A stretch of 56,092 nucleotides of DNA from a virus (taxonomy: Duplodnaviria; Caudoviricetes): the IMG/VR virus record IMGVR_UViG_3300036851_000592, positions 1 through 56,092 of that record; one strand, written 5' to 3'. Both the position numbers and the translations under genes were made by a program. A model generated the notes under the pieces. It had not been told where the DNA came from. It ran no database searches and worked only from the letters and a program-made list of their open reading frames with translations. Shown piece after piece: positions 16,203 through 56,092 of this stretch (its first letter is position 1; each line of letters starts with the position of its first letter).

Positions 16203-16253
16203 AACCTTCGCTCCTTCCAGTTTCGCGCGGGCGCCATGGGCGCGCGGCGATGT

Positions 16254-16972: not shown

Positions 16973-16974
16973 GG

Positions 16975-17619: not shown

Positions 17620-17624
17620 GGCTT

Positions 17625-17652
17625 GCGGCGAAGCCGCTAGCGGCTTCGCCGC
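17625..17652. repeat. Perfect 28-bp palindrome filling an intergenic gap
   Basis: GCGGCGAAGCCGCT-AGCGGCTTCGCCGC. Confidence 0.9.
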
Positions 17653-19688: not shown

Positions 19689-19719
19689 GCGCGCGGGGCC
19701 TCCCTCTTCAAAAAAGAGG

Positions 19720-20778: not shown

Positions 20779-20808
20779 GATCGGAGTTCCTTTTCTCGAT
20801 GCTGGGCG

Positions 20809-21186: not shown

Positions 21187-21242
21187 ATGTTGATCTCCTC
21201 GGTTTCAGAATTTCGATCTACCGCGCCGACCGGCGCTACGCG

Positions 21243-22403: not shown

Positions 22404-23922
22404 CCTTCTTTGGCTGTTGCGCGACGCCGGCGACCGTCACCTTGCGCGGATCGCTATCGAGCACGAGGCCAAGTTCATCGGCGCGGCGATTGTCCTCGGC
22501 TATCTCTTCGTCGACGGTCTGAACCGCGTAGCCGCGCTCGGACACATGCGTCGCGCGCGACAGGAAGCCTGCGCGAACTTCGTCCCGGCGCGCGGCAACG
22601 TCCTGCGTCGGATTGATGTAAGGCCAAGCCTGAGGCGCCCATTTCACCCGCACGACGTCGCGAAGCGTTACGCCATTGCGCAACCTGATTTTGCCAGCGA
22701 GCCAGGCTGTCTCGGCCCAGCGCCTGAGGACAGGCGCGGCCCACTGAAAGACGACGAGGCCATGCTGATACATTTCGACGGCGCGGCGGAATTCGTTGAC
22801 GGCAGCGCGCCATGTCCGGTCGTTGACGTGCTTGTAGTTGCCGGAAAGCTGTTCAAACAGAATGCCGGCCGCGACCGCGACGCGGCGTTCCTGACCTTCC
22901 ATGAAAGATTCGTAAGAATCTTCAAGTTTCGGCGGGTCGGAGAAGGTGATCTCCTGATCAGCGCGCAATAAATTCATGAGGCCAGGCTCGAGGCTCGCGA
23001 TTGCGACGCCGTCCTCATTGGCGTCGCCTTGACCTGAGAGAATCTCGTTCTCGTTGCCAGTCTGCGGGCCGCCTCTGACGAAACCGGTGAACAGCGCTCC
23101 GATCTGCTGTTTGACAAGTTGCGCGTCGTCATACTTGTCGAGATCGTGGAGCTTCATGAGCGCGCGTGTTAGCCACGGCTCGCCGCGGATTTCGCCCGGC
23201 CGCCGCACCTGGGACAATTGCAACACCTCGCTCGCAGGCACCCTCACGGTATCGGCCGAGAAGGCGAAGCCAAGCATCCCGAAATCGAACGGATGCTGGC
23301 GATACATGTGGTAAGCCACGCGCCGGTCGAGCCGATCGAATTCTATTCCCTGGCGGATGATGCTGTTGGGTCCGACCCACTCGTTCTTTTCGTTCGGGAC
23401 GAATTCCGACTCGACCACCTGAAGCTGAAGCGGAACGACGAAGCCATCATCGAGCGCGCGCACGCGGAATCGGGTGAAACAATCGCCGCCCTCAAACATC
23501 GAGCCGACCGCCGTCGCCTGCAGACCATAGAAATCCTGCCGGCCGTATGAGTCGCATTCCGCGCTCCAGTCCTCGAACAGATCGACCAGTTCCCGGTTCA
23601 GGTCTTTGTCCTTCGTGCGGAATTGCGGCGTGATGCCGGTGCCGACGAAATTGACGACTGTCGTGCGCTTGGCATTATCGGCCAGGCCGTCTCGCCTGAT
23701 CTTGTCGCGCGAGCGCGCGCGCAAGGTGGGAAGCGCCGCGCCGAGCAGGCTATTGGGCCCGCTCGATGGCGCGACCCAATTGGAGGTGCGAGGACTCACG
23801 TAGCCGCCGGCGTCATAGCCGGTGTTGAGCCCGGCCGATCGGACGATTTCCGAGCGAATCGCCGGAACATAGACTTTCGAGCCTTTGATTCGGTAGCGCA
23901 TCGCTGCCACCTGATCGGGCAT
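22375..23922 (-). CDS. Portal protein, lambda family
   Basis: LRARSRD, VGTGITP, QGIEFD, RPGEIRGEPW. Confidence 0.92.
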   Translation of the reverse strand: MPDQVAAMRYRIKGSKVYVPAIRSEIVRSAGLNTGYDAGGYVSPRTSNWVAPSSGPNSLLGAALPTLRARSRDKIRRDGLADNAKRTTVVNFVGTGITPQFRTKDKDLNRELVDLFEDWSAECDSYGRQDFYGLQATAVGSMFEGGDCFTRFRVRALDDGFVVPLQLQVVESEFVPNEKNEWVGPNSIIRQGIEFDRLDRRVAYHMYRQHPFDFGMLGFAFSADTVRVPASEVLQLSQVRRPGEIRGEPWLTRALMKLHDLDKYDDAQLVKQQIGALFTGFVRGGPQTGNENEILSGQGDANEDGVAIASLEPGLMNLLRADQEITFSDPPKLEDSYESFMEGQERRVAVAAGILFEQLSGNYKHVNDRTWRAAVNEFRRAVEMYQHGLVVFQWAAPVLRRWAETAWLAGKIRLRNGVTLRDVVRVKWAPQAWPYINPTQDVAARRDEVRAGFLSRATHVSERGYAVQTVDEEIAEDNRRADELGLVLDSDPRKVTVAGVAQQPKKDVVDDKPSD

Positions 23923-24134
23923 CAGCTCAGCCCCTTCGAAGTGGCGAAGCGCACGGCCTTCGTTCGCCGTATGCCCGCGGCACCGGCGATGTCCGCCTGC
24001 ATGATTGCTTGGAGTTCGAGCATATCCTCGAGGTCCGGGTAATCGACTTCGCGGTCGGTGTATTTGACGCGCTTAACGCCCTGGGCGATAGCCTGGGTAA
24101 GGGCATCGAGCTGGGCCTGGGTATAAATCGCCAT
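23922..24134 (-). CDS. Head completion protein (gpW-like)
   Basis: YTQAQLDALTQAIAQGVKRVKYTDREVDY. Confidence 0.85.
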   Translation of the reverse strand: MAIYTQAQLDALTQAIAQGVKRVKYTDREVDYPDLEDMLELQAIMQADIAGAAGIRRTKAVRFATSKGLS

Positions 24135-24274
24135 CGTTGCGTAATATCGCGAAGATGGTCCTAGCACAAGGGGTGGGGCCTCCACCGGCTGGCCTGCCAA
24201 GACTTAGTGGGTGCTATCACGGGAAGCGCCCTGAGCCGATGGAGGTAGCGGGCATCCTGACCAATCATGATGCG

Positions 24275-24332
24275 AAAAGCAATGGCATTGCTCGGATGTG
24301 GACTTGCGCCGGTGCGGCATCAGAGCGAAGGT
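24275..24332 (+). promoter_or_regulatory. Diverged copy of the operator/promoter block
   Basis: AGCAATG-G-CATTGCT palindrome then GACTTGCGC...AGAGCGA, same layout as 25045 and 50087. Confidence 0.6.
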
Positions 24333-24443
24333 CCACCTTGCGTCCAACTAGTGGGCGTGAACCTGGCGAACACAAAATCGCTTCCCGCGCTTTTCGCCAA
24401 AGCGATCCTTAATGGACGGGAGTGGTTTGAAAGGAAACTAGCC

Positions 24444-24791
24444 ATGAAATGGACTCTGTTCAAAGACGCGATGCCGGCCATCGGTCAGCCGCTCGTCATT
24501 TTGTATTTGGACTTCGCCGAGGTCGGATTGACATTTTGTCATACCCGCACCGGATGGCTCGAAGAGCGTGGATTCGGCAACGTCATCATGGATGCCGGCA
24601 ATCAATTGAGCGATTACGAACATGCCACACTCGAGAAGTGGGGGGCTTGGGCGTATCTTCATGAGGCCACGTCCGAAGCAATCGCTGGATGTGCGTTCGC
24701 CAAGGGGCACACCGAAGTGATCACCTTCGAAGGCACCGGGATGACGGTCTCGGTCGAGACTAACGAGATGCTCGAATACGCTACGGTGTAG
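24444..24791 (+). CDS. Hypothetical protein
   Basis: AAGGA RBS and ATG 24444. Confidence 0.6.
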   Translation: MKWTLFKDAMPAIGQPLVILYLDFAEVGLTFCHTRTGWLEERGFGNVIMDAGNQLSDYEHATLEKWGAWAYLHEATSEAIAGCAFAKGHTEVITFEGTGMTVSVETNEMLEYATV

Positions 24792-24793
24792 TC

Positions 24794-25012
24794 GTGATCA
24801 GGATCGACAGGAATATTCCGCTTCCGCCATACAAAGCCAAGGGAAGGAGACCGGGCAACATTTACCCGTTTCGCATGATGGCGATCGGAGATAGCTTTTT
24901 TACCGAGAACGTCCGGGCCTTCAATTCTGTGCCGAATGGATTCGGCCGATGGGAGTCTCGAACGATCGAAGAGAAGGGCAAGCGAGGCATCAGGATTTGG
25001 CGGATCGGCTGA
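24794..25012 (+). CDS. Small basic putative DNA-binding protein
   Basis: IDRNIPLP...YPF..M.IGDSFF...GIRIWRI, a recurrent phage small-protein pattern. Confidence 0.65.
   Translation: MIRIDRNIPLPPYKAKGRRPGNIYPFRMMAIGDSFFTENVRAFNSVPNGFGRWESRTIEEKGKRGIRIWRIG
24841..24870 (-). other. Protospacer for spacer 4 (perfect match)
   Basis: 30/30 reverse complement of 55590-55619. Confidence 0.97.
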
Positions 25013-25015
25013 GAA

Positions 25016-25039
25016 AAAGGGGCGCTTTGGCGCCCCTTT
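25016..25039. terminator. Intrinsic terminator, possibly bidirectional
   Basis: AAAGGGGCGC-TTTG-GCGCCCCTTT. Confidence 0.7.
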
Positions 25040-25044
25040 CCATC

Positions 25045-25153
25045 AAAAAAGCAATGCCATTGCTCCGAATCGACTTGCGCAAAACGGCGATTAGAGCGAT
25101 GTTGTTTTCATTGAACGGGGCAGCGCCCCACCTGAGGAGGACCAGCCGATGAC
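25045..25153 (+). promoter_or_regulatory. 109-bp block (palindrome, putative promoter, RBS, ATG), copy A
   Basis: Identical to 50087-50195. Confidence 0.85.
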
Positions 25154-25462
25154 AATTTCCCTGATTACCGAGCACCGCGATTGCGCGATGATAGCGGGTG
25201 ACGAAGAAAAGACCGTTGTCGGTCATATCAAGCGGCATGGACGGTCGAGGCCTTCGGCATGAGTTCCGAACATTCCTTTGTGAGCCTCGCCGCCGCCGAG
25301 TATTGGCTTCTCGCGATGGTCATCGAGTTCGCGGAACTGAACAAGGAGGCATGAAAGGAGGTTCACCTTCGAAGGCGCCCAGCCCGGCATTTCCCCTCGC
25401 CGGGCTCAGGGCAGTGCAAGGCCTTCGATGTGAGGGCCGGAACCGAAGAGGGACTAACGACG

Positions 25463-26065
25463 ATGAAACTCTCCGACACTCAACTGGTGATCCTCACCAA
25501 GGCGGCTGGCCGCGATGACGGCTCAGTCTACCCGCTTCCGCGCGGGCTCAAGGATGGCGCGGCGACCCGGGTGCTTAACACCCTGATCAAGACGAAACTC
25601 ATTGAAGAGGTAGAGGCCAAGCGCGGCGAGACCATGTTCCGCGAGACCGGTGATGGTCACGGAGTAACGCTGGTGATCACCAAGCGCGGTCTCGAAGCGA
25701 TCGACGGCGACGGAGGCGACGCGAAGGTGACCGAGCCGAAGACGAAGGCCAAGCCCGCGCCCACGCCAAAGAAGCAGAAGGACGCCGCGAAGACCAAGGC
25801 TGCGGCCCGCGCCGAACGCAAGGCGACGGCCAAGCCGAAGGCGGCCGCCGCCGCCGAGCGCGCCCCGCGCGACTCGAAGCAGGCCAAGATGATCGAAATG
25901 CTAAAACGCCCGAATGGCGCCTCGGTTGACGAGATCGCGGCTGAGTTCGGCTGGCTCAAGCACACGACTCGCGCGGCGGTTTCAGTCGCGGTTCGCAAGC
26001 TCGGGCTCACGTCGACGGCGACGAAGGAAGAGAACCGCGGAACGGTCTACCGGATCGCGGCCTAA
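25463..26065 (+). CDS. DUF3489-like protein (C-terminal winged helix)
   Basis: MKLSDTQLVIL..AA.R.DG and KQAKMIEMLKRPNGASVDEIAAEFGWLKHTTRAAVS. Confidence 0.85.
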   Translation: MKLSDTQLVILTKAAGRDDGSVYPLPRGLKDGAATRVLNTLIKTKLIEEVEAKRGETMFRETGDGHGVTLVITKRGLEAIDGDGGDAKVTEPKTKAKPAPTPKKQKDAAKTKAAARAERKATAKPKAAAAAERAPRDSKQAKMIEMLKRPNGASVDEIAAEFGWLKHTTRAAVSVAVRKLGLTSTATKEENRGTVYRIAA

Positions 26066-29703: not shown

Positions 29704-30644
29704 TACATCTCGTCCACGATAATGGCCTTGACCGGGAACGTGCTGCCAGTGCGCGTTTTCTTTCGTAAGTTGTGGTGGCCGGCTTCCTTCCAGTCCGTGT
29801 ACGTCATGCGCTTGCGCCTCACGAGGCCCTCGACGGTGGTGGTTCCGAAATACGGGCGCGGGATTCCATCGCTGCCAAGATCAGCGTTGCTCGGCGACCA
29901 GAAGCCGCCGGGGTGACGGATGAGTGTGCCATCGCCGCCGGCGATCGCCGCATCAAGCGCGCGCTGCATTTCCCTGCTGATCTCTTTCGGCCAGGGTGCC
30001 ATTATATTTCGTCCTTCGGGATCAGGCGATACTCACACAGGCCATATCCATCAAATACCCGTTCGATCCATTCGAGCCAGACTCCATCATTCGTGCCCGT
30101 GATTCTGACCGGATGCCACGCGAACCATGGATGCCACTCCAGCCTTGCCAGACAGCGCTCCCTTTCATCCAAGCCAAGCTTCAGTCTCACTTTTCGTTCT
30201 CCACCTTTTTGAGGGCTGCATACATCAGCCCGACAAGATTGAAGTTACCGTAGAGCAATGTTTGGGGAATGAATGCTCCATCAAGGTGATGCATCGTGCC
30301 ATCGGCATTGTCGGGAATGGCTACCGGGAGCGAACGCTGGAAATCTCCCTTGTGAGAAGGAAGCGCCTCTTGCCATTCGTCGATGCTGTCATAGAAGGCC
30401 TTCGCTAGAGCCTCAGCGCGCTTTTGCCGTTCGGTGGTCATCGCTCTTCTCGCAGGATCGCGCGGCCGTGGTCTGTTATGCGCACAAATTGCACCGGGCG
30501 GCTGCTCGGGCTCGGGATATAACAGAAGTCGGCAAGCCCGTCGTCTCGCAGCCGCTGAACGACGCCCGGGTTTAGCTCCTGAGCGGGCACGGTAGCCTCG
30601 GCAAGTTCCCTCAAGGCGTCACGCGATGCCGGTTTCAGTTTCAT
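29703..30644 (-). CDS. Four coupled small hypothetical ORFs (29703-30002, 30002-30190, 30187-30441, 30438-30644)
   Basis: Chain of overlapping start/stop codons. Confidence 0.55.
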
Positions 30645-31924
30645 CGTTTTACTCCTTTACGCTTGAGCCTCTGTGTTCGAGCATCGAGGCCTTGGCCCGA
30701 GTCCTCGTGCTTAGCCTTGCGGCCGGTAAAAACTTCCCACCTTCTGACCGCCATGTCGACATAGACGGGATCAAGCTCGATCGCGTGGACGATGCGCCCG
30801 GTCATTTCGCCGGCGATGATCGTCGTGCCGCTTCCGCAAAACGGATCATAGATGTGGTCGCCGCCCTTCGAGTTGTTCTCGATCGGACGGCGCATGCACT
30901 CGACCGGCTTTTGCGTCGAGTGATTGGTGCGGCCATCATCGGTCTCGCCCTGCGTCGCATGCATCATCGGTATTTCCCAAACCGTCGCCTGCTTGCGATC
31001 GCCTGACCAGTGACCGGTCCGGCCTTCGCGGACCGCATACCAGCATGGCTCGTGTTGCCAATGATAATCGCCGCGGCCGATGGCAAAGTTATTCTTCGTC
31101 CAGATGATTTGAGAACGGATGATGAAGCCCGATGCCAACAGCCCGTTGGCGACGTCAGGCGCGTACACGCCGGCGTGCCAGACATAGGCGACATCGCCCG
31201 GGAACAGGGCCCACGCCTCGCGCCAGTCTTTGCGATCATCGTTCTCGACTTTGCCCAGCGCGTGGTTGCCGGTGCTGAATCGCTTTCCACTCTTTTTGTG
31301 AAACCGCTCAGCCTTCGGCCGCCAGCTTGCGTCATAGGCTACGCCGTAAGGCGGGTCGGTCACCATCAAGTGCGGCCGCGCCTTGCCCATCGCGAGTTCG
31401 ACGACGGCCGCCTTGGTCGCATCGCCGCAGACGAGCCGATGCGAGCCGAGCAGCCAAACATCGCCGGGCTCGACACCGATCGCCGCGCGCGGCTCAGGAA
31501 CCTCGTCCGCTTCACTTTCAGAGCCGATTGATCTCGCCAGCGAGGCCGCGAGTTCGCCCGGATCAAACCCGGTCAGATCGAGATTGAAGCCATCGACCTG
31601 GAGCCCCGCAAGCTCAGCCGCGAGCTTGTCCAAATCCCACTCCGCTTCCTCGCCGGTGCGGTTATCGGCGATGCGATAGGCGCGTGCCTGAGCGGGTGTC
31701 AGGTCTTTTGCGACGTGAACGGGAATCTCTTTCATTCCCAGGCTTTTCGCCGCTTCCCATCGCGTATGCCCGACGATGATCACGCGCTTGCGATCGACAA
31801 CGATCGGCTGACGCCATCCGAATTCCTTGAGCGCGCCGGCGACCTTGGCCACAGCGCTCTCGTTTCGGCGTGGATTGTTCGGGTACGGAGCGATGGAACC
31901 GATGGGAACTAAGGCGACATCCAT
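30641..31924 (-). CDS. ParB-N-domain-fused N6-A/N4-C DNA methyltransferase
   Basis: PYPNNPRRN...IIVGHTR (ParB-N); TDPPY, HSTQKP, DPFCGSGTT. Confidence 0.92.
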   Translation of the reverse strand: MDVALVPIGSIAPYPNNPRRNESAVAKVAGALKEFGWRQPIVVDRKRVIIVGHTRWEAAKSLGMKEIPVHVAKDLTPAQARAYRIADNRTGEEAEWDLDKLAAELAGLQVDGFNLDLTGFDPGELAASLARSIGSESEADEVPEPRAAIGVEPGDVWLLGSHRLVCGDATKAAVVELAMGKARPHLMVTDPPYGVAYDASWRPKAERFHKKSGKRFSTGNHALGKVENDDRKDWREAWALFPGDVAYVWHAGVYAPDVANGLLASGFIIRSQIIWTKNNFAIGRGDYHWQHEPCWYAVREGRTGHWSGDRKQATVWEIPMMHATQGETDDGRTNHSTQKPVECMRRPIENNSKGGDHIYDPFCGSGTTIIAGEMTGRIVHAIELDPVYVDMAVRRWEVFTGRKAKHEDSGQGLDARTQRLKRKGVKR

Positions 31925-33750: not shown

Positions 33751-34362
33751 TCAAGTCCCCATCGATTTGAGGCTGTTCGCGAGGCCCTTCAAGCGCTCGG
33801 CCATCGCGGCGCGCTCCTCAGGCGTCCGCGGATATTTTTTCGCCTCTTCCGCTTCGCGTTGTCGGCGATTGTACTCGGCGATGTGCTGCTGAGCGCGCAG
33901 CCTCACGACGTCGAATCGCGCCTTGATCGTCTCGCAAGCTTCGCGAACATCCGAGGCCTTCGGGTTGTGACCGAGTCGACCAGGCAAGCCGGTGTACACG
34001 TCGACGACTTCGATGCAAACGCGCTCGCTGTAGTTCGAGAGAACTTCGATCAACGCGATGAAGTAGCCTTTGGGATCATGCGGAGCGAGTTCGGGAAATC
34101 CGCGCATGAGCAATTCGGCGAAACGCTGTGCACGGAGGATATTGGGATCGTCCCTGAGCGGCCGCGCGCTGTAATCGAACTCGGCGATGAACCGCTGACA
34201 GACTTCGGGCGGAAGGAGTTTCGAGTTCGACGCCGGCGGCGCGCTAGTGTTCAGAACGGCCAGTGCGTTCGCGAATCCTTTCGCCGACATCGCGGACTGC
34301 CTCTGCAAGTCCCTGCCGCGTGCCAGGTCGAGCGACGGTTGTCTTGCGATGGTTGTCGTCAT
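33751..34362 (-). CDS. Hypothetical replication-associated protein
   Basis: Overlaps the end of the initiator gene (lambda P position). Confidence 0.55.
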   Translation of the reverse strand: MTTTIARQPSLDLARGRDLQRQSAMSAKGFANALAVLNTSAPPASNSKLLPPEVCQRFIAEFDYSARPLRDDPNILRAQRFAELLMRGFPELAPHDPKGYFIALIEVLSNYSERVCIEVVDVYTGLPGRLGHNPKASDVREACETIKARFDVVRLRAQQHIAEYNRRQREAEEAKKYPRTPEERAAMAERLKGLANSLKSMGT

Positions 34363-35533
34363 AGGCGCCCTCCATCAGGCTGGTGAACGATTCGGCTTGA
34401 AGCAGGAATTTGAACGAGCAGCGAAAGTCGGTCCTCTCACCACGGAGGAATTTGCTTGCGCGAACTTTTGCCATTGCGATTTTCCATCCGTCAAGTCCGC
34501 CGCAATCGGCGAGTCTCGCCCTGAGCTTGCCCTTTCGTGTGTCGGAAAGGTTCTGGCACTGAGCGAGGCTGAGGTCTCGGGCAACATCATTCCACAGCGC
34601 GACCGCCTGCTTGAGTTCGGAAGCAGAGACCAAAGGCGGCTTTGTCGCGCTCGCCGAGGACGAGAGAGATACAGGGGATTCTGTTTCAATGGGATCTCCG
34701 AAGGAAAAGTCAGTCTCCGAACTATCCAGAATCTCCTCCCTCTTATCTCCTCCTATTATCTCCTCCCTCTGAAACATCTTTTCCACTTTCGCAGGTTGCG
34801 ACAAGGCTGTCGCATTTCCAATTTCCCCATTCGCATTTGCGACAGATTTTGTCGCAAGTGCGACTGAGCCAGTCGCAAGTTGTTTTTTGCCGTATACTTT
34901 CCTCATGCAAAGCTCAGCAAGCTTTTCCCTAGAATAGATCGACAGAAATTCCTCTACCGACATGTCCTTTTTGAGTATATTGCAGGATTTGCAAGCGGCA
35001 ACGAGGTTGTTGAGATCGTTAGTTCCATTCTTTTTACGTGAGACTTTATGGTCTATCTCCAGCGTGTTCGCGCGCTTGCGGTAGTAAGTGATTTCCGAAT
35101 GGCAGTAATAGCACTGGCCTTTCTGACGCTCGCATAGGAGTTTGGGAATTGTACTGAATAGATCGGCCGGTTTCTTTGGCTCCTGGCTTTCCCAACTGAC
35201 GAACTTAGCAACGTCGTCGTCGATCGGGAATAGATATGACGGCGATTTCGGGCGTTGCCATTGGCAGAAGTTCCGAATTGCCCCTAAATGTTGCCCATCA
35301 CTATGAAAGTCACGAATCATGTTCTCGGCCGCAAGTATATGTAGGGTCTTGATGATATCGACCGGGTCGACCGGAAAGAGGCGAACTTTCAGGGTTGTCG
35401 CACGCCATTTGAAGATGCCGCGGTCATCGGATTCGGTCAATAATCCTATGAAAAGGAGCCGGGCTTCATAGGGAACATTTAGGAATGCATCGTCGGTAAA
35501 AAGACCCGGATGAACACTTCTGATTCTGGCCAT
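34244..35533 (-). CDS. Replication initiator with in-frame HNH domain
   Basis: MARIRSVHPGLFTD...DDRG N-terminus; CYYC..IDH..NLVAACKSCN..K; SKFLRG..F.FLL....LMEGAYD C-terminus. Confidence 0.8.
   Translation of the reverse strand: MARIRSVHPGLFTDDAFLNVPYEARLLFIGLLTESDDRGIFKWRATTLKVRLFPVDPVDIIKTLHILAAENMIRDFHSDGQHLGAIRNFCQWQRPKSPSYLFPIDDDVAKFVSWESQEPKKPADLFSTIPKLLCERQKGQCYYCHSEITYYRKRANTLEIDHKVSRKKNGTNDLNNLVAACKSCNILKKDMSVEEFLSIYSREKLAELCMRKVYGKKQLATGSVALATKSVANANGEIGNATALSQPAKVEKMFQREEIIGGDKREEILDSSETDFSFGDPIETESPVSLSSSASATKPPLVSASELKQAVALWNDVARDLSLAQCQNLSDTRKGKLRARLADCGGLDGWKIAMAKVRASKFLRGERTDFRCSFKFLLQAESFTSLMEGAYDDNHRKTTVARPGTRQGLAEAVRDVGERIRERTGRSEH
34797..34877. repeat. Three palindromic TGCGAC-N6/7-GTCGCA repeats, candidate origin iterons
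   Basis: 34797-34814, 34837-34857 and 34859-34877, inside the initiator gene. Confidence 0.65.
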
Positions 35534-35575: not shown

Positions 35576-36154
35576 TCATGATGATACTCCCGCGAACTTG
35601 GCAGTCTCGTCGCCCCAGACCGAATTCCCGGGCCACGACTCGCGTGCGAATAGTTCGGCGCGATAACCCGATGGTGTCAATTGCTCGCAAAGTGAGCGCA
35701 TTTTATCGGGCTTTCTTGAGTGCTCACGCGCGAGGCCATCTATGAAATTCCGACACGATCGCGAGTCGCGCGGCGGATTGCCGAGCGTGCCAACGAGGAA
35801 CGGCTCACAGCACGAGCGGAACCGATAGCCGGGCCCGAGCCTGATTTTTCCGGTCTTGGTTCGCTTCGCCCAAGCACCGCCGGTGCAATATTTGAAGCCC
35901 CATGCATCGATGACTTCGAGCGCGAACGGAAGCCTCGGCCAGACCGCCCACAGGATCAAGAAGCAATGATCGCGCGCGAGGCGGTGAACCGGCAACGCTT
36001 TCAAGTCATCATCATTCATTGTGCGGTACTGATGCTCGGGCGCCTTGCGGTAGCCGCGCGGACTTCGCATCTCATAGCGCCAGGGCGGGTCCGCGAGGAT
36101 CAGATTGTAGCTGAGCGGCCGAAGGTCACCGAATGGCCACGCGTCGGTTTTCAT
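35576..36154 (-). CDS. MT-A70 family adenine methyltransferase
   Basis: ILADPPW, WGFKY, EHSRKP, ELFAR. Confidence 0.92.
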   Translation of the reverse strand: MKTDAWPFGDLRPLSYNLILADPPWRYEMRSPRGYRKAPEHQYRTMNDDDLKALPVHRLARDHCFLILWAVWPRLPFALEVIDAWGFKYCTGGAWAKRTKTGKIRLGPGYRFRSCCEPFLVGTLGNPPRDSRSCRNFIDGLAREHSRKPDKMRSLCEQLTPSGYRAELFARESWPGNSVWGDETAKFAGVSS

Positions 36155-47837: not shown

Positions 47838-48194
47838 ATGGTCGCCTATTCCTTCAAGGCTAGATTCGCTCAGCCCATTCTCGACGGTGTCAAAAAACAG
47901 ACCATCCGCGCTGACCGCAGGCGCCACGCGCACCCAGGCGAAGAGCTACAGCTATATACCGGGCGCAAGCTGATCGCCTGCGCGATCTGCAAAGAAGTGG
48001 TTCGCGTCGAAATAGACTTTCGTTGCCCTCAGGTGCTTATCTGTCGAGAAGGAGGTTGGTCTATCCTGAAGGTTGAAGATTTCGCGCGCGCGGATGGATT
48101 CTCGTCATTCCATGCGATGGCGGAATTTTGGCTCTCCGTTCATGGGGCAACTTCGTTTCATGGCTTCATGATCAGATGGGACCGGCTGCTATGA
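47838..48194 (+). CDS. ASCH domain protein
   Basis: F...F...IL.G.K.QTIR, LQLYTG, FARADGF. Confidence 0.75.
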   Translation: MVAYSFKARFAQPILDGVKKQTIRADRRRHAHPGEELQLYTGRKLIACAICKEVVRVEIDFRCPQVLICREGGWSILKVEDFARADGFSSFHAMAEFWLSVHGATSFHGFMIRWDRLL

Positions 48195-48784
48195 CGCCGC
48201 TCGAGTTCGTCAGAGCCGCGCGCGTCCCGCATTCGCTCGAGCCTCAGACGTTCGGGCTATGGACGATCGAGCGGCATATCACTCAGCCTTGCGAGGCGGT
48301 GACAGCCTGCTTCGATGACTATACGATCCTGAGGCGCTGGAGCACGCGCTCGCTTCATCTTCCAGCCGGCGAAGTGGTCATGCTCGATACGATGCAGGAA
48401 CTCGTCTCGCATATGCCGATCTGGCTTGCCGCGCGCGGCCGCGTCCTGATCACCGGGCTCGGCCTCGGCTGCGTTGTCCGCGGGCTCCTTGCGAATCCCG
48501 AGATCGAGCACGTCGACGTTGTCGAGATCGACGAAGCAATCATCCGCGTTATCGGACCCGAGTTCGCCGGCAACGAACGGCTGACGCTCCATCACGGTGA
48601 TGCGACAACGATCGAACTGCCGGGCCGCCATTGGGACTTCGCCTGGCATGATCTCTGGGTCGACGACGGTTGCCTGCAGCTTGTTCACGCGCATCTTTTG
48701 AAGCGGTTTCACGGCCGGACAGGAAGGCAAGGCGCTTGGAAAATGCCGCGTTGGTTCAGGCGCCGTCTGCCTGAATTGCTTTGA
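48191..48784 (+). CDS. Class I SAM-dependent methyltransferase (spermidine synthase-like)
   Basis: VLITGLGLG, VVEID, GDA, WHDLW. Confidence 0.75.
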   Translation: MTPLEFVRAARVPHSLEPQTFGLWTIERHITQPCEAVTACFDDYTILRRWSTRSLHLPAGEVVMLDTMQELVSHMPIWLAARGRVLITGLGLGCVVRGLLANPEIEHVDVVEIDEAIIRVIGPEFAGNERLTLHHGDATTIELPGRHWDFAWHDLWVDDGCLQLVHAHLLKRFHGRTGRQGAWKMPRWFRRRLPELL

Positions 48785-50136
48785 TGATTTATGGCTCGGT
48801 CTGTTCCGGCATCGAGGCTGCGACGGTTGCGTGGCGGCCGCTCGGATGGCGCGCGGCGTTCTATTCGCAGTTCGATCCCGAGCATAAGGGGAAGGGCCCT
48901 GACTTTGCCTCGGCGGTGCTTGCCCATCATTATCCGGACACGCCGAATCGCGGCGACATGACCCGTTTCAAGGAGTGGCCAGGTGCAACTATCGATCTTC
49001 TCGTCGGCGGAACGCCCTGCCAAAGCTTCTCCATCGCCGGTCTCCGAAAAGGATTGGATGACCCGCGTGGCAACCTCATGCTTACCTATCTTGCAATTGC
49101 TCAACGCTATCGGCCCTCGTGGCTGGTTTGGGAAAACGTGCCCGGTGTCTTGTCGGTTGATGAAGGACGGGCTTTTGGCACCCTCCTCGGAGGGATGGCA
49201 GAACTCGGGTATCATGCGGCCTGGCGAGTGCTTGACGCTGAGTACGTGCGAGTGGACGGCTTTGCCCGAGCAGTTCCCCAGCGACGACGGCGTGTGTTCG
49301 TTGTCGGATATCTTGGAGACTGGCGACGTGCCGCGGCGGTTCTATTTGAGCGCGAAAGCCTGTCGGGGAATTCTCCGCCGCGCCGAGAAACGTGGAAGGG
49401 TCTTGCCTCGAGTCTTGCGGCGCGCACTAGAGGTGGTGGCGGGCTCGGGACAGACTTCGATCTCGATGGAGGATTGATCGCCGCGAGGACGATTCAGGCA
49501 GGCGGACATTCGAACAATCCGATTGACGAAAATCTTGTCGCTCAGATCGCGTTTGGCGGAGGTAATACTGTCGGCTCCATCGACGTGGCAACGGCCAGGA
49601 ACGGCCATGCGGTCCCGCATGGCCGTCTGGATTTCGAGAGCGAGACGTTTGTCGCTCACCCGATCTTGGGAAAAGAGAACTCCAGTCACGATCACACGAT
49701 GGACACCTACGTCTCCCACGCCTTGCGCGCCGATGGCTTCGACGCGAGCGAGGACGGCACAGGGCGCGGGACGCCGCTTGTGCCCACCGCCTTCGATTGC
49801 AAGGCCGGCGGGAAGACTGGATTTGCAATTGGCGACGTGCCCGGTTCAATTCGCGGTGATGGCCATGGTGGAGGTCACGCAGCCGTCGCTCTCTCCATGC
49901 GGGAAGAACCGCACAAATGGGCCGTCAGAAGATTGACCCCCGAAGAGTGTGAGGCACTCCAGGCAATCCCTCGCGGCTACACGCTGATTCCGTGGCGCGG
50001 GAAGCTCGCGCCTGACGGGCCGCGCTACAAGGCGCTTGGGAATAGCTTCGCGGTCAACGTCATTCGCTGGATCGGGCATCGGATCGAAAAAAGCAATGCC
50101 ATTGCTCCGAATCGACTTGCGCAAAACGGCGATTAG
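48781..50136 (+). CDS. DNA (cytosine-5) methyltransferase
   Basis: SVCSGIE, GGTPCQ, WENVPG, PQRRRRVF, RRLTP.ECE.LQ, YKALGNS. Confidence 0.95.
   Translation: MMIYGSVCSGIEAATVAWRPLGWRAAFYSQFDPEHKGKGPDFASAVLAHHYPDTPNRGDMTRFKEWPGATIDLLVGGTPCQSFSIAGLRKGLDDPRGNLMLTYLAIAQRYRPSWLVWENVPGVLSVDEGRAFGTLLGGMAELGYHAAWRVLDAEYVRVDGFARAVPQRRRRVFVVGYLGDWRRAAAVLFERESLSGNSPPRRETWKGLASSLAARTRGGGGLGTDFDLDGGLIAARTIQAGGHSNNPIDENLVAQIAFGGGNTVGSIDVATARNGHAVPHGRLDFESETFVAHPILGKENSSHDHTMDTYVSHALRADGFDASEDGTGRGTPLVPTAFDCKAGGKTGFAIGDVPGSIRGDGHGGGHAAVALSMREEPHKWAVRRLTPEECEALQAIPRGYTLIPWRGKLAPDGPRYKALGNSFAVNVIRWIGHRIEKSNAIAPNRLAQNGD
48983..49477 (+). CDS. Nested alternative-frame ORF resembling the M.EcoHK31I beta polypeptide
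   Basis: W.NSG....GE....T.E.......CSLS.ILET......F.LS....GI.RRA.KRG..LP (comparison from memory). Confidence 0.55.
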   Translation: MQLSIFSSAERPAKASPSPVSEKDWMTRVATSCLPILQLLNAIGPRGWFGKTCPVSCRLMKDGLLAPSSEGWQNSGIMRPGECLTLSTCEWTALPEQFPSDDGVCSLSDILETGDVPRRFYLSAKACRGILRRAEKRGRVLPRVLRRALEVVAGSGQTSISMED

Positions 50137-50840: not shown

Positions 50841-52218
50841 ATGCCTACTTATCCAACGACCTTGATTGCCCCTGGGCGCCTGATCGCTCAGTGCGGACGG
50901 CTGCGCAAACCGATTGATGATTTGCGGGAACTCTCACGCGCCTATCGCGCCACGATCGACGAGCTTGGGCTCGGAGGATCGGAAACGCCCAATTGCTACA
51001 TCCTCAATGAGGTCGGCAAGCGAGTGGGGCGGGTTTCCTACAACGGCCGCGTCTGGAAAGGCGAGGATTGGTCCCAAGGCGATGTGCCTGTTTATTGTCC
51101 GCGCATGGAGGGCTGAACCAAATGATGACCCGCTATGCCAAAGACCCGCGCTGGCTGACCGCGCGCTGGGATGGAACTGACGCCAACGGCCGCGCCTTCA
51201 AGAAAGGCGAGAGGATTTTCTATTACCCGAACGGCCGCAGCACCCTGAGCGGCGAGGCGGCCGAACAAGCCGCCCGGGACTTCGAGGCTGAGGCTCAGGA
51301 CGAGGAGCAACTGCGGTGACGGAGTATCTCGAAGTGGCGGGCAAATTGCGCAACATCGTTTCTGAGCGCGGCGGTCTCGATCTTGACAGCATGGCGATCC
51401 TCCATGGCGCCGAATCAATCGAGATCCTAGTCAAGGCGCTCGCGCTCGCCGAGGAATGGCTACCGGTCAGCACAATTGGCGACGTTCGCGACGGTCGCAA
51501 GATCATGGTCTGTCTCGCGAAAGTGAATCGCAACAATCGACTCGGCCCGATCCGGCTTGTTCATTGGAACCTTAACCCGCGCTGGAGCCCGCATTGGCTG
51601 GGCGATGTTGCAGGTCATTACTTTCACGACCACGACTTCGCCGCTTGGCGCCATCTTCCCAAACCACCAAAACAAGGAGCCTAATCACTATGGGACTCAC
51701 GAACGTCGAACCGACGATGCAGGATCACGCCTTCATCGCCGACATCGCCAGCGGGCTTCACTTAGTGACGAAAGCCGGGCATACGTTGTATAACCGGCGG
51801 AAAATCTCAAATCACATCGACTTGGACTATTCAAGTCTCTTCTGCGGCGCGGTCGCGACGTGGCTTCTTGAGATTGACCGCAATGTGCCAGGTACGATCG
51901 CAGGCGTCATGAAGACGATCGAGGAACATCTGAAGCGCACGGGAGGCGACGCCGTTGGCTGATCATCGCGAAGTAGATAATCAATTCTGTCAAATGCTCT
52001 GCGACCGTCTCGTGGATTTGATTGCCGAAACGCTGCCTGAATTTCAGAGACTGGTGAATGCTGGTCTCGTTTCAGTTTGTTATTCTGACTTGCTTGCATC
52101 GGCCATTGCCTCAGTTGCGAAGGCATCGGAAGAAAAGGTGCCGCTTTTTCGCCCTGCGCTTCTCAAGGCTATGAGAGAGATTTCGCCGGGCGGCGCGCGC
52201 GGGCCTGGAGTCCAATGA
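50841..52218 (+). CDS. Small hypothetical ORFs (50841-51116, 51122-51319, 51316-51684, 51690-51962, 51955-52218)
   Basis: Tightly packed with RBSs. Confidence 0.55.
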
Positions 52219-52457
52219 ACATCATCCGCTACGCGCGCGGCCGCTTAGGGACGATCTGGGGCCTCGATCGACCACTCCATTATTCCGAGCTTGCCGAGGT
52301 ACTCAGGCTCGCCGGCCGGAATCCAGGCGATACCGTGCGGAGCTATGAGCGCGGGCACCGTCAGGCCTCAGGCCCGGTGCTGCTGGCGATCGATATGATG
52401 ATTGCCGGCGCGCGGCCGCCGGGGCTCGAACTGCTTTTGAGGGAGTGGAATCCATGA
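52215..52457 (+). CDS. XRE-like HTH protein
   Basis: ELAEVL.L.....TVRSYERG....SGPV. Confidence 0.6.
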   Translation: MNIIRYARGRLGTIWGLDRPLHYSELAEVLRLAGRNPGDTVRSYERGHRQASGPVLLAIDMMIAGARPPGLELLLREWNP

Positions 52458-52684
52458 CGACGACGGCCTATGAAGACGAAGTGCTGGGCGATGCGGCGAA
52501 CGAAGTGCGGGAGATCATAGTCAGCGCTCTCGCGGAATTTTCACGGCGCCACGGGACCGACGATCCTGATCTCTATCCGGTGATCGCAACTGGTTTCGTC
52601 ATCGCGATCCTCGAGGACATGCAACCCGCCTGTCCTCACTTCGCAACCGGCATCCGCAGCGCGCTCGAACGGAGAGGATTTTGA
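52454..52684 (+). CDS. Hypothetical protein
   Basis: Coupled ORF. Confidence 0.5.
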   Translation: MTTTAYEDEVLGDAANEVREIIVSALAEFSRRHGTDDPDLYPVIATGFVIAILEDMQPACPHFATGIRSALERRGF

Positions 52685-52819
52685 CGGATGGGGAGCTATC
52701 TCGAAATCACCACGGAAAACCAATCCGATGGAATTGCTGGCCGACATTGTCGAAACAGTTCTCAAAGACAATCTGATTGATGTTCCCATCACCGCAACAG
52801 GCAATAGGAGGGCGGGATA

Positions 52820-53149
52820 ATGGGTGAAGCGAAGCACACACCGGGTCCATGGAAAGTAACAAAATCATCAGAGCGCAAAACACTTTGCGTAGTGAACGAT
52901 GATACGTGGATTTGCGGGGAACTCCAAGCGCTGAACGGGACGGCCATTGATGAACGCGAATGCCTCGCCAACGCCCGCTTGATCGCCGCCGCTCCTGAAA
53001 TGTACGAGGCGCTTGAACAAGCCGAAGCTTGCATGAGCATCGTGGAACCGCGAAGCGACAAGGCGGAATATCTGCGGATTCTTGGCGTGATCCGCGCCGT
53101 AATCGGCAAGGCAGAAGGCCGTCAGCCCTCCGCCCAGAGAGAGGAGTAG
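52820..53149 (+). CDS. Hypothetical phage protein (HTPGPW...ANARLIAAAPE family)
   Basis: Recurrent phage motif. Confidence 0.75.
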   Translation: MGEAKHTPGPWKVTKSSERKTLCVVNDDTWICGELQALNGTAIDERECLANARLIAAAPEMYEALEQAEACMSIVEPRSDKAEYLRILGVIRAVIGKAEGRQPSAQREE

Positions 53150-53404
53150 CTTGGATGGGAGAGGGCTGGCAACCGATTGAGACGGCTCCGAAGGATGGGA
53201 CCAACCTTCTGATGTGCAGCGGCGATCACTGGATGACGACCGGCAGTTGGAATAAGTGGCGCGGCGAGTGGTGCATCAATGCGCCGGGTTATCCTCGCTA
53301 TGGGTACGACGAACAGCCAACACATTGGCAATCGCTGCCCGCCTCGCCCTCCGCCCAAGGAGAGGAGTAGCTCGGATGGGAGAGGGCTGGCAACCGATTG
53401 AGAC
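53125..53404 (+). repeat. 59-bp direct repeat pair (53125-53183, 53346-53404; 3 mismatches)
   Basis: Spans stop, RBS and first codons of two DUF551-like genes. Confidence 0.9.
53155..53370 (+). CDS. DUF551-like protein
   Basis: WQPIETAPKDG...PTHW..LP. Confidence 0.75.
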   Translation: MGEGWQPIETAPKDGTNLLMCSGDHWMTTGSWNKWRGEWCINAPGYPRYGYDEQPTHWQSLPASPSAQGEE

Positions 53405-53573
53405 AGCGCCAGAGGGCGAAGTGGTCGAAACCAAGATTGATGATGCGCTAGGAGTCAGGAATCAGACCAGGCTACGGCGCAAGGGCCGTCTTTGGTTTTC
53501 TCCGGACATGTCGATGTATGTCTACTACGAGCCGACGCATTGGCGCGCCCCGCCCACAACAGGAGAGAGATAG
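53376..53573 (+). CDS. DUF551-like protein, second copy
   Basis: WQPIETAP...YYEPTHWR. Confidence 0.7.
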   Translation: MGEGWQPIETAPEGEVVETKIDDALGVRNQTRLRRKGRLWFSPDMSMYVYYEPTHWRAPPTTGER

Positions 53574-53798
53574 ATGCGAAACGCGGCCATGGTTGCCGAG
53601 GAAGCGCTCAAGGATGCGATCAACCTTATAAATTCACAGTCTGGTCGCATCGATCGATTGCGCTGCGCCCTTGAGGAAATTTCCACACTCGATGCTGATG
53701 AGGACGAAGCGCTTGCTCGTCAGTGCAAAGAAGGCGGCGCGGCAAGATGGGCGAAAGATATCGCGGTCGCCGCGCTGCTCAAAGACAAACCCACATGA
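53574..53798 (+). CDS. Hypothetical protein
   Basis: AGGAG RBS. Confidence 0.55.
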   Translation: MRNAAMVAEEALKDAINLINSQSGRIDRLRCALEEISTLDADEDEALARQCKEGGAARWAKDIAVAALLKDKPT

Positions 53799-53816
53799 CA
53801 GCGCGCGGGAGCACCA

Positions 53817-53982
53817 AGCCATGACCGACACCGAGAAGCTGGTAGAGCGGCTGGAGTTTTGGAGCAAACACCAGTACCGCGTGGTTGATAGCCCTTGGGG
53901 AACAAGTCCCAACGGAGACCTTCGCTTAGCCGCCTCCGAACTCACCCGCCTGCGCCAGCGCGTCGAGGAGCTGGAGGGGGCG
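53817..53982 (+). repeat. Left ~166-bp direct repeat flanking the CRISPR module
   Basis: Matches 55949-56092 plus 106-127 with 2 SNPs. Confidence 0.9.
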
Positions 53983-54024
53983 CTGGGAAACGGCGGATTT
54001 TCCAAAGCGCCCGGAGAGGAGTGA
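53821..54024 (+). CDS. Shortened paralog of the 55953-298 gene
   Basis: Same first ~55 aa and same KAPG.E end; middle missing. Confidence 0.65.
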   Translation: MTDTEKLVERLEFWSKHQYRVVDSPWGTSPNGDLRLAASELTRLRQRVEELEGALGNGGFSKAPGEE

Positions 54025-54025
54025 G

Positions 54026-55348
54026 ATGGGAAACTGGCAGGACAATAAACCGGAGGAAGTGAGGCGCGTCTATCTCTATGGCGCGTTCCCGCCCAAGGAT
54101 GGCCTCGCCGATTTCGACAAGGCTCAGGAGTTGAAGCGAGAGATGTGGGCCGAGCTGTGCGCTATCTATCGCCAGTATGTCGCCGATCTAGCGCTCGTGC
54201 CCGCCGCCGCCGCGCAAGCTGTCGCATCTGGCGATAAGGCTATAATTCGCGAAGCGGAAAAGGAGATGAAGTCCGATCTGTCGGCACGCCTATACGCGCG
54301 GATGGCGGATGCGCGCCGCAGCGTCGCCGCGAAGGGGCTGCACAGCGGCGACTACAACGCTGTGACATTCCAATTCATGGGAGCGGCGCGCGCCTCGAGG
54401 AAACGCGGAGCCCTTCCGGGCGACGGTGACAAGCCGATGGAATCATACTGCGGCGCGGCCGTCGTCAATCAGGTCAAACGGTTTTCGCCCGCGCGGCTTT
54501 TGCACCACACCGAAACTCGGATTGAATTCATCGCGCGACCGCGAAGCAAGTCCCGCCGCGGCCGGCGCCTATTGGCGAGGCTGCACATCACCGTGCGGGG
54601 GCCTAAAAATCCTCTCGGTCACAAGGTACTATCGGTCGATTTCATCATGCACCGGCCGCTGCCTCCCGACGCTGAAATCGTCGAGGTACGGTTGATGCGC
54701 AAGACAATCCCCGCCACCACTCGCGACCGCAAGTCCGCGCTGTGGACGAAATGGCAAGTCGCGATCGCCGTGGCCACTCCCCGGCGTGTTCACGACCGCG
54801 CGGATAGGATCGCAGGCCTTGCTCTCACTTGGGCCGACGACGGATCTGGCGAGCAGGAATTTTGCGTCGTGGCGGAGAATTCCGGCCGCACCGTAACGCA
54901 TGTGATGGAGGCTGGCCATGCCGAGACATGGAAGAGGCTGACAACGCAAAAAGAAACCGCAAGCACGCTCGATGGCGAAGCGCAGGCCAGCGCGCTCCAT
55001 GCCTGTGCGGTTCATGAACGACGTCTCGCGCTGAGGCGCCGTGAGTTTTTGCGCGTCACCGCCGCGCGGCTGACAACTGTCTACAGCGTGATCGCCATCG
55101 AGGACATGTGGCTAGCCGGTATGGGCGTGAAAAAGCATCTCGCGCCGGCCCTGTTTCGGCAGAATCTCAAAAACGCGGCGAAGGTGCGCGGAACGGAAAT
55201 CCTGGAAGTCAAATTGCCCAAGCGAGAAGGAAGAAGCGCGCGGGATTGCGCCAGAATGCTGCTGGAGGAGGCGGAAAAATTCGACGGCGACGACGGAATG
55301 TTGTCCGGCGACGAAGAGAAAAGTCAAGTACATGAGGCGGTTGCATGA
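54026..55348 (+). CDS. Miniature Cas12m-like (type V-M/V-U1, TnpB-derived) effector, predicted nuclease-dead
   Basis: VYLYG..PP start; MHRPLPPDAEI; RuvC-I AGLALTW (Asp absent); bridge helix RRREFLRVTAARL; RuvC-II IAIED; LAPALFRQ.L; no CxxC zinc finger; abuts the array. Confidence 0.8.
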   Translation: MGNWQDNKPEEVRRVYLYGAFPPKDGLADFDKAQELKREMWAELCAIYRQYVADLALVPAAAAQAVASGDKAIIREAEKEMKSDLSARLYARMADARRSVAAKGLHSGDYNAVTFQFMGAARASRKRGALPGDGDKPMESYCGAAVVNQVKRFSPARLLHHTETRIEFIARPRSKSRRGRRLLARLHITVRGPKNPLGHKVLSVDFIMHRPLPPDAEIVEVRLMRKTIPATTRDRKSALWTKWQVAIAVATPRRVHDRADRIAGLALTWADDGSGEQEFCVVAENSGRTVTHVMEAGHAETWKRLTTQKETASTLDGEAQASALHACAVHERRLALRRREFLRVTAARLTTVYSVIAIEDMWLAGMGVKKHLAPALFRQNLKNAAKVRGTEILEVKLPKREGRSARDCARMLLEEAEKFDGDDGMLSGDEEKSQVHEAVA

Positions 55349-55353
55349 AAGCC

Positions 55354-55908
55354 ACCCCTCACACCCTGCATCGGGGGGATGCCGATGACTTCGACGCGAC
55401 CGATGGCGACGTCATTGGCGACCCCTCACACCCTGCATCGGGGGGATGCCGATGACCGCATCATCCGCTCAGCCGAAAGCTTCGGCACCCCTCACACCCT
55501 GCATCGGGGGGATGCCGATGACTGAGTTTCTTGCTTTGGAGGCTGAGATACCGGCCCCTCACACCCTGCATCGGGGGGATGCCGATGACAACGGGTAAAT
55601 GTTGCCCGGTCTCCTTCCCGGCCCTCACACCCTGCATCGGGGGGATGCCGATGACTCGGCAGCCCGAATCAGATCGTCGCGTCCAGGCCCTCACACCCTG
55701 CATCGGGGGGATGCCGATGACATGGGTCTCGCCTCCGAGCCGGCGCATGGCGGCCCTCACACCCTGCATCGGGGGGATGCCGATGACCGCATCTGGCGAA
55801 GCGCCCGGCCCATGCGGGGCCCTCACACCCTGCATCGGGGGGATGCCGATGACCTTGACGCTGACCTTCTCGCCAGCGGCCGCGGTCCCTCACACCCTGC
55901 ATCGGGGG
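55354..55908 (+). CRISPR. CRISPR array: 8 full repeats, 1 truncated trailer repeat, 8 spacers of 30-31 nt
   Basis: Invariant 34-nt core CCCTCACACCCTGCATCGGGGGGATGCCGATGAC at 55356, 55423, 55489, 55556, 55622, 55688, 55754, 55820, partial at 55887; period 66-67. Confidence 0.97.
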
Positions 55909-55948
55909 CGCATCAAGCCGATACAAGTTGAAGTTCTGGAGGAATACG

Positions 55949-56092
55949 AGCCATGACCGACACCGACAAGCTGATAGAGCGGCTGGAGTTTTGGAGCAAA
56001 CACCAGTACCGCGTGGTTGATAGCCCTTGGGGAACAAGTCCCAACGGAGACCTTCGCTTAGCCGCCTCCGAACTCACCCGCCTGCGCCAGCG
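55949..56092 (+). repeat. Right direct repeat and start of the wrap-around gene (ATG 55953)
   Basis: Matches 53817 onward; last 105 nt equal bases 1-105. Confidence 0.9.

Follow-up and report, generated by a model that had tools for sequence, protein, structure and literature searches.

CRISPR effectors that bind DNA without cutting it (Cas12m, Cas12c and TldR) have been described from plasmids, bacteria and prophages. Cas12m, the effector of type V-M, is described as using a single crRNA and no tracrRNA, with RuvC-independent processing and very stable, PAM-dependent DNA binding that is not followed by cleavage (PMC11013384; PMC10442227). The PAMs described for it are T- or C-rich, and guides directed at essential phage genes, whichever the strand, are reported to let it protect cells from phages (PMC11013384; PMC10442227). 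It is also reported to silence from within coding regions, again on either strand (PMC11013384). Phage- or prophage-borne V-M loci were reported earlier (PMC11656645), as was a 'gradual inactivation' within type V-M (PMC10691335). For TldR, the study describing it relates that changes in the TAM and the seed allow the promoter copy of the phage itself to escape, and it cites a seed of ~6 nt for TldR and Cas12a (10.1101/2023.11.30.569447). In the Sulfolobus viruses SPV1 and SPV2, spacers are reported to target close relatives, and the viruses' own orthologous loci carry point mutations (PMC6858448). In a landfill virome, spacers of viral arrays are described as having been compared only with array-less viruses, so that self-matches were invisible (PMC12607003). 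Our full-text literature search returned no report of a phage-borne, dead and truncated Cas12m with guides to the virion genes of its carrier; supplements of surveys may list the family.

The locus described here lies in a phage genome of 56,092 nt, and that whole stretch of DNA is referred to below as the window. An earlier note on this DNA had claimed that half of the spacers in a CRISPR array target the phage's own genome, and had proposed either a roadblock on the phage's own virion genes or the silencing of closely related co-infecting phages. We followed up these claims computationally.

A complete lambda-like phage

The window is the whole of IMG/VR virus record IMGVR_UViG_3300036851_000592, which is classed under direct terminal repeats, rated 100% complete and has a GC content of 60%. 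Its ends overlap exactly over 105 nt, so the unique circle is 55,987 bp. The phage is lambda-like, 56 kb in size and complete, and comes from a soil metagenome. A PHROGs scan of 40 ORFs places a lambda-like virion module on the - strand, with genes for the small and large terminase, portal, protease, decoration, capsid, major tail, tape-measure, distal tail, J-like and fibre proteins, and shows that the phage also encodes replication, recombination and several DNA methyltransferase genes. No integrase, repressor, Cas1, Cas2 or other adaptation gene was found among the 40 window proteins scanned. The nearest terminases in GenBank phages belong to Roseobacter and Paracoccus phages (45% identity), and an alphaproteobacterial host is only a guess.

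No close relative of this phage turned up in any of the collections searched. Scanning IMG/VR with capsid peptides gave one match, at 34% identity, and megablast of positions 12000-26000 against GenBank phages gave nothing. In a set of 5.8 billion protein clusters, the decoration and major-tail proteins had no other member at 90% identity or above, with the next best at 53% and 57%. Nor did these collections yield a relative that the spacers match better, of the kind the earlier note had supposed as a possible target.

The genome has further features, which we record as side observations. A palindromic 17-mer, AAGCAATGSCATTGCTC, occurs three times (24277-24293, 25049-25065 and 50091-50107). 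Its second and third copies share ~110 identical nt, running through an RBS and ATG, and look like an operator/promoter unit; the first and second copies flank a + strand cassette that contains the protospacer of the fourth spacer, and a 109-nt Logan contig with about twice the depth falls on the third copy. On the - strand, 34244-35533 encodes a replication-initiator-like protein whose middle (residues ~130-215) matches HNH endonucleases, as a fusion or an inserted homing-type nuclease, and 17652-18608 is a glycosyltransferase-like gene (phrog_1962) within the virion module, between the capsid and tail genes. There are at least four DNA methyltransferase genes (30641-31924, 35576-36154, 48128-48784 and 48781-50136), one of them fused to a ParB-like nuclease domain, and heavy self-modification by methyltransferases could affect self/non-self discrimination by DNA binders. 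Directly upstream of the CRISPR module stand paralogous small genes, as shown by a 70-nt direct repeat (53125-53194 and 53346-53415, 90% identical) that covers the RBS and start of two adjacent small + strand genes.

The CRISPR array and its repeat

The array occupies 55354-55920 on the + strand and begins 7 nt past the stop codon of the effector gene. It consists of eight identical 34-nt repeat cores (from 55356), eight spacers of 30-31 nt and a ninth repeat (55887-55920), which retains the first 22 nt and is degenerate in its 3' half. Each core is preceded by two variable nucleotides, giving a 36-nt repeat and a period of 66-67 nt. No tracrRNA-like anti-repeat is present in the window, since the repeat core occurs only eight times, always on the + strand. 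The exact 34-nt core has no match in viral_contigs, and an exact 30-nt core has none in the 185,579 species genomes of genome_contigs.

Three repeat types, from the window and its relatives, allowed us to compare their folds. The sequences differ, and a 5-bp stem with a 7-nt G-rich loop right before the guide is kept. All 14 of 14 cells of this hairpin are paired, with two compensatory pairs across the three types; the covariation is weak, as only three sequences contribute and 75 of 500 shuffles score equally. Folds of single repeats were no better than those of shuffles. With the hairpin in this position, the guide lies 3' of the repeat, which is also the arrangement of Cas12m, and any PAM would lie 5' of the protospacer. 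Rfam returned nothing but a chance lncRNA match (E 0.64). Across 52000-56092, a scan for sigma-70 promoters gave 0 sites, and the frequency of terminator-like sites did not exceed that of shuffled sequence.

A Cas12m-derived effector with a dead RuvC site

The effector gene (54026-55348, + strand) encodes P0001, a Cas12m-derived protein of 440 aa with a dead RuvC site and no zinc finger. Searches with the single sequence gave marginal TnpB and Cas12m matches only. The family profile (A1, a 17-member alignment of the short family) is far clearer, matching in the PDB the Cas12m structure 23vw_A at E 1.7e-29 over profile positions 10-399, and UnCas12m4a at E 4.9e-16. The AlphaFold (AF2) model of P0001 (pLDDT 87, pTM 0.80) has Cas12m2 (8hhl) as its best Foldseek match (E 4e-14, TMq 0.63), and in VIA-align TnpB (Z 21.4, 315 aligned) ties with Cas12m2 (Z 21.2, 377 aligned).

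P0001 has Ala in place of the RuvC-I Asp and retains the RuvC-II Glu, but both RuvC-III and the zinc finger are missing altogether. Decay of the catalytic site extends over the short family, where the RuvC-I Asp is retained in one of 17 members and the RuvC-II position is acidic in three of 17. The zinc finger is present in five of these proteins and absent from twelve; where it is present, E or Q then replaces the RuvC-III Asp. The long homologues retain GxDLGW, the acidic RuvC-II residue, CxxCG...CxxCG and DxNAA. Judged from these sequences, P0001 is a Cas12m (type V-M) derivative that almost certainly cannot cut. The earlier note's premise of a non-cutting effector is very probably right, given the RuvC-I D-to-A change and the deletion of RuvC-III and the zinc finger in the alignments, and self-targeting would be survivable because such an effector cannot cut.

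The effector ATG ends a 27-nt ribosome-binding/start junction (54002-54028, + strand) that also occurs at 276-302 and 1227-1253, before two other + strand genes (three matches, none expected). As a side observation, the copies at 276-302 and 1227-1253 are identical over 43 nt, and the 27-nt motif may mark the boundary of a cassette exchange or serve these genes as a common translation signal.

A rare family next to arrays in viral contigs

An exhaustive HMMER search of 1.84 billion representatives returned 34 proteins at E <= 1e-3, P0001 among them, and 20 at E <= 1e-10. The close relatives are mostly 400-465 aa long and ~30-44% identical, with a few shorter fragments, and a weaker tier of homologues measures 520-630 aa. 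The TNB zinc-finger domain (Cas12f1-like) was detected in nine of ten long homologues scanned, in seven of them above the Pfam cut-off. The P0001 family is rare and metagenomic. Ten cluster look-ups led to metagenomic proteins only, and no relatives of P0001 were found by tblastn in GenBank phages, by pattern search in the 185,579 species genomes of genome_contigs, or by two pattern sets in metagenome_contigs.

DNA context could be retrieved for three relatives, and all three lie in IMG/VR viral contigs with a period-66 mini-array directly 3' of the gene. In viral_contigs, a pattern search with P0001 alone found none. Alignment A3 led to the same three loci, and alignment A4 to none. Two of the three relatives (L010 and L011) carry an identical module. 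The three phage types that carry the module have almost no other genes in common, which makes the module a mobile accessory. In one of them, G001 (90% complete), the first spacer matches the phage's own effector gene at 30/30 in the conserved HRPLP region (L009 10558-10587; G001:C1:37965-37994), and the other 2-3 spacers have no match in its own record. In the other, G003 (78% complete), none of 2-3 spacers matches its own record. A self-match is therefore seen in two of three independent modules (window, G001 and G003). Cross-targeting among the three module phages was not found, with best matches of 17-22 of 30.

Four of eight spacers match the phage's own genes

Scanning the window on both strands with mismatches allowed reproduced all four self-matches of the earlier note, with the same coordinates and identities. 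Spacer S1 (55390-55420, + strand) matches 29 of 31 positions at 20937-20967 (- strand), in codons 74-84 of the head-decoration gene (20809-21186), and differs at guide positions 1 and 26. S4 (55590-55619, +) matches 24841-24870 (-) without any difference (30/30), in codons 16-26 of a small + strand DUF7303 gene (24794-25012). S5 (55656-55685, +) matches 29 of 30 positions at 15797-15826 (-), codons 126-136 of the major tail gene (15741-16202), with its difference at guide position 6. S6 (55722-55751, +) likewise matches 29 of 30 at 13413-13442 (+), codons 566-576 of the tape-measure gene (12675-15137), and differs at guide position 1. For S2, S3, S7 and S8, the best matches elsewhere in the window reach 18-22 of 30-31, the level of shuffled sequence. 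Because 200 shuffled spacers reach only 18-22 as their best matches, and never more than 22/30, half of the spacers are true self-matches, far beyond chance.

The strands are also as the earlier note had them, with S1 and S5 in mRNA sense and S4 and S6 antisense. Its naming of the targets held for head decoration (lambda gpD-like, phrog_49, PF02924), major tail (phrog_158) and tape measure. The label 'DNA-binding' for the S4 target is unsupported, because this 72-aa protein matches DUF7303/phrog_7597 only. The targets of S1, S5 and S6 all belong to a single long virion operon, which is read leftward and extends from terminase to tail fibre, and none of the four self sites is at a promoter. DNA rather than RNA as the target, which the earlier note had read from the strands, gains support from the homology of the protein to Cas12m together with the mixed spacer strands; RNA targeting was rejected on the mixed strands and the Cas12m ancestry of the effector.

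Matches to other sequences were also sought. The 26-nt cores of S2 and S3 have no exact match in viral_contigs, and the 25-nt core of S8 has none in genome_contigs. Blastn with the whole array (all eight spacers, S7 included) found no match in GenBank phages and, against PLSDB, three weak partial matches of 33-46 nt that we take as chance.

Differences between guides and self sites

Three of the four differences fall within the first six guide positions, out of 121 aligned positions; a binomial calculated by hand gives ~0.03, for a test picked after the data had been seen. Read from resident to spacer, the head-decoration differences are Val74Phe and Thr82Ile and the major tail difference is Gly128Ser, and the tape-measure difference is synonymous. 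Three are thus non-synonymous and one synonymous, at codon positions 2, 1, 1 and 3. The spacer-encoded Ile82 is found in one of eight decoration homologues and the spacer-encoded Ser128 in two of 22 tail homologues. Since both residues occur among homologues, these two differences resemble genuine alleles carried by a related, functional gene. The spacer-encoded Phe74 is found in none of the eight decoration homologues, seven of which have Val at that position, and the base at position 1 of S1 seems to reflect a junction or a change on the side of the spacer.

The 5' flanks of the four self sites are AAT, CGA, ATG and GTC, none of them T/C-rich like the described Cas12m PAMs. With the self site of G001 added (CCG or TCC), no flank motif is shared among the five, either 5' or 3'.

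Linkage of the module to the phage

The module (53983-55948) stands between two copies of a 166-bp direct repeat that are identical at 164 of 166 positions. The left copy (53817-53982, + strand) starts a 67-aa ORF (53821-54024), and the right copy (55949-56092 and on to 127, + strand) starts a 110-aa ORF (55953 to 298 across the junction). The right copy runs into the 105-nt terminal overlap, and both ends of the contig lie inside that copy. The small gene that the repeat begins is thus duplicated. As a side observation, the repeat is the common N-terminus of the 67-aa and 110-aa ORFs, as if the module had entered by a single crossover there.

One soil-metagenome run (X1) holds the stretch and may be the sample behind the window assembly; no RNA sequencing runs holding it are listed. 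The k=31 Logan contigs of run X1 break off at the repeat, where they overlap by 30 nt (53953-53982). One contig, whose sequence we checked, continues from 53982 into the sequence after the right-hand repeat copy. Depth in this run is 18.2 for the module contig against 18.2-20.9 for neighbouring phage contigs, and the distal junction (55830-56092) is without contig cover. Two further joints were seen in run X1. One contig links 55420 to 55656, that is, S1 to S5 without S2-S4 (side 30); it may stem from a variant array within the population or from an artefact of the contig graph at the repeats, and its side is too short to interpret. The other joins 54028 to 55723 (side 26) and is also too short to interpret.

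One possible explanation for the association of array and phage is an assembly mis-join, in which a 2.1-kb module from another molecule or a minority variant was threaded in via the shared 166-bp repeat. This would agree with a repeat of 164/166 identity that brackets the module and holds both contig ends, and with Logan contigs that stop at the repeat while one bypasses the module from 53982 into the sequence downstream of the right copy. However, the depth of the module equals that of the flanking phage contigs, the effector starts in a 27-nt junction motif common to two other phage genes, and GC content at the three codon positions resembles what other genes of the phage show. The same phage is matched by half of the spacers, relatives of the effector also lie within viral contigs, and a 2.1-kb circle without a replication gene is implausible. 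The equal depth, junction motif, phage-like codon composition, self-matching spacers and viral context of the relatives make a mis-join highly improbable. Separately, a host array beside a prophage was rejected, as phage genes stand on both sides, the record is circular and there are no host genes.

Possible functions of the self-matching guides

Our main reading, which we favour tentatively and would not yet call probable, is binding-only silencing of near-identical co-infecting phages with the resident genome partly spared. The truncated Cas12m-type protein and the array, co-transcribed in a rightward non-structural operon, would make up a minimal binding-only CRISPR module. By analogy with Cas12m, a crRNA made up of the repeat hairpin and, 3' of it, a 30-nt guide would bring the protein to dsDNA of matching sequence, and the bound complex, subject to any PAM requirement, would act as a roadblock to transcription or replication. 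The four guides would have been copied from the virion-gene region of the phage's own lineage, and the DNA silenced would mainly be that of near-identical phages co-infecting or superinfecting the same cell, in interviral competition. The resident genome would be partly spared, as three of the four copies differ PAM-proximally and lack a pyrimidine-rich 5' flank.

There are possible alternatives to this reading, and the evidence divides between them. Because Cas12m protects against phages, a working complex whose guides matched the decoration, tail and tape-measure genes perfectly should harm its carrier, and PAM-proximal differences at the three virion-gene sites with a perfect match only in a small accessory gene are the pattern expected from selection against self-binding. 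This self-avoidance-like pattern, together with the SPV and TldR precedents, is why interviral silencing with partial self-sparing is favoured. The PAM-proximal differences, the lack of a pyrimidine-rich 5' flank and the two natural-allele residues lean towards relatives and partial self-avoidance, whereas the perfect S4 match and the G001 spacer that perfectly matches its own effector gene lean towards self-regulation. Silencing of rivals also has to contend with the failure to find a better-matching relative in IMG/VR, GenBank phages or the protein clusters, with a perfect S4 and a 30/30 match of G001 to its own effector that self-avoidance leaves unexplained, with a share of non-synonymous differences (three of four) unlike the ordinary divergence of close relatives and including Phe74, seen in none of eight homologues, and with five self sites that have no shared flank. 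Self-regulation, which we consider somewhat unlikely, would have the dead Cas12m and its guides occupy the late operon of their own phage and, in relatives, the effector gene itself. Virion production would thereby be postponed or restrained, whether for timing, for a carrier state or as negative feedback. It accounts better than interviral silencing for the 30/30 match of S4 and for the first spacer of G001, which matches its own effector gene at 30/30 in the HRPLP region. It would also suit a module that sits in a rightward non-structural operon with the S1, S5 and S6 sites in the leftward virion operon, an effector that cannot cut and so makes self-targeting survivable, and the reported silencing by Cas12m within coding regions on either strand (PMC11013384). 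On the other hand, three of the four self sites have a difference within guide positions 1-6, the stretch in which Cas12-type binders tolerate mismatches least, no site is at a promoter, and there is no common PAM-like flank. In G003, none of 2-3 spacers is self-matching (in a record that is 78% complete), and neither integrase nor repressor is among the 40 proteins scanned. The more specific proposal that an early-expressed, nuclease-dead Cas12m relic with late-operon guides, and in a relative with a guide to the effector gene, serves as an RNA-programmed timer or brake on virion production is rather unlikely in our estimate; if true, it would add a hitherto undescribed class of viral gene regulation.

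The self-matches could also be a tolerated by-product, if a host adaptation complex acting in trans had loaded the array with pieces of whatever DNA was most abundant in the cell, namely that of the phage; the differences would then be drift, and the spacers would persist since a dead effector does no lethal harm. Several observations are what such an origin would give: no adaptation genes among the 40 window proteins scanned, self sites without a shared flank motif and hence without a PAM consensus, and differences at codon positions 2, 1, 1 and 3 that are mostly non-synonymous, as in an unconstrained spacer. Phe74 is not a natural allele, and no better-matching relative was found. Yet the module looks maintained, with eight identical repeat cores, an intact 440-aa frame and a confident fold, and the differences cluster PAM-proximally rather than being evenly spread. 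Moreover, a Cas12m-type binder on essential virion genes is reported to block phages (PMC11013384), so the self-matches would not be neutral, and we judge a by-product quite unlikely. Of the two functions proposed in the earlier note, self-roadblock and silencing of relatives, the shared premises of a non-cutting effector and a DNA target stand, and the data cannot decide between the functions themselves.

If the guides act on near-identical rivals, as we tentatively favour, the module would exclude superinfecting phages in a non-destructive way, and seed changes would give the carrier an inbuilt means of sparing itself. Were the phage itself the target, this would be a natural CRISPRi employed as a viral regulator. 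On either reading, the 440-aa P0001 is predicted to be a compact, naturally nuclease-free DNA-binding scaffold, and the presence of native targets and near-cognate decoys in one genome makes PAM, seed and mismatch rules directly testable.

Comparison with known systems

The module resembles type V-M (Cas12m, e.g. MmCas12m2 and GoCas12m) in sequence and fold homology over WED, REC and RuvC, and in having a 36-nt repeat with a 3' hairpin by the guide, an adjacent array and no anti-repeat. It further resembles the V-M loci described in PMC10442227, PMC11013384 and PMC11656645 in its lack of adaptation genes and its carriage on a mobile element, and binding without cutting would be expected here by analogy. 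Unlike type V-M, P0001 has 440 aa instead of ~600 aa. The Cas12m proteins described so far have both a DED, HDD or NDD triad and a TNB zinc finger, whereas P0001 is without either, and the carrier is a 56-kb phage whose genome is matched by half of the spacers. The module descends from type V-M and by analogy probably works like it, yet the RuvC triad and TNB zinc finger that help to define this type are absent.

Other viral loci share parts of this arrangement. MvCas12m of a myxophage is described as a Cas12m-type gene beside an eight-spacer array in a complete phage, without adaptation genes or tracrRNA, as here (10.64898/2026.09.14.751636). The same description gives MvCas12m 610 aa, an intact D-E-D triad and no protospacers found, whereas P0001 is truncated, dead and accompanied by self-matching spacers. 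The type V-like proteins of the landfill virome are likewise small and located by viral CRISPR arrays, some of them Cas12m-like and some without a detectable RuvC motif, and their published description assigns them no function or targets (PMC12607003). The SPV1/SPV2 mini-arrays, as described, also lie in a viral genome without adaptation genes and carry spacers from the same virus lineage, and they have no cas gene and borrow a cutting effector of the host via host-identical repeats (PMC6858448). In contrast, this phage brings its own non-cutting effector, one of its self-matches is perfect, and its repeat was not found in 185,579 species genomes (searched with the exact 30-nt core only). With respect to own-locus mutations of the SPV1/SPV2 type, three of the four self sites differ from the guide and one is identical.

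TldR, the name for TnpB-like nuclease-dead repressors of temperate phages, resembles the module in being phage-borne, in its decayed RuvC site and in a C-terminal truncation that removes ZnF and RuvC (10.1101/2023.11.30.569447), and P0001 would, by analogy, likewise be an RNA-guided DNA binder. TldR is described as descending from TnpB, using a single 16-nt omega-RNA-like guide and repressing a host promoter (10.1101/2023.11.30.569447), whereas the module has a Cas12m ancestor, a multi-spacer CRISPR array and matches within phage coding regions. The module converges on TldR in its pattern of decay while keeping a CRISPR array.
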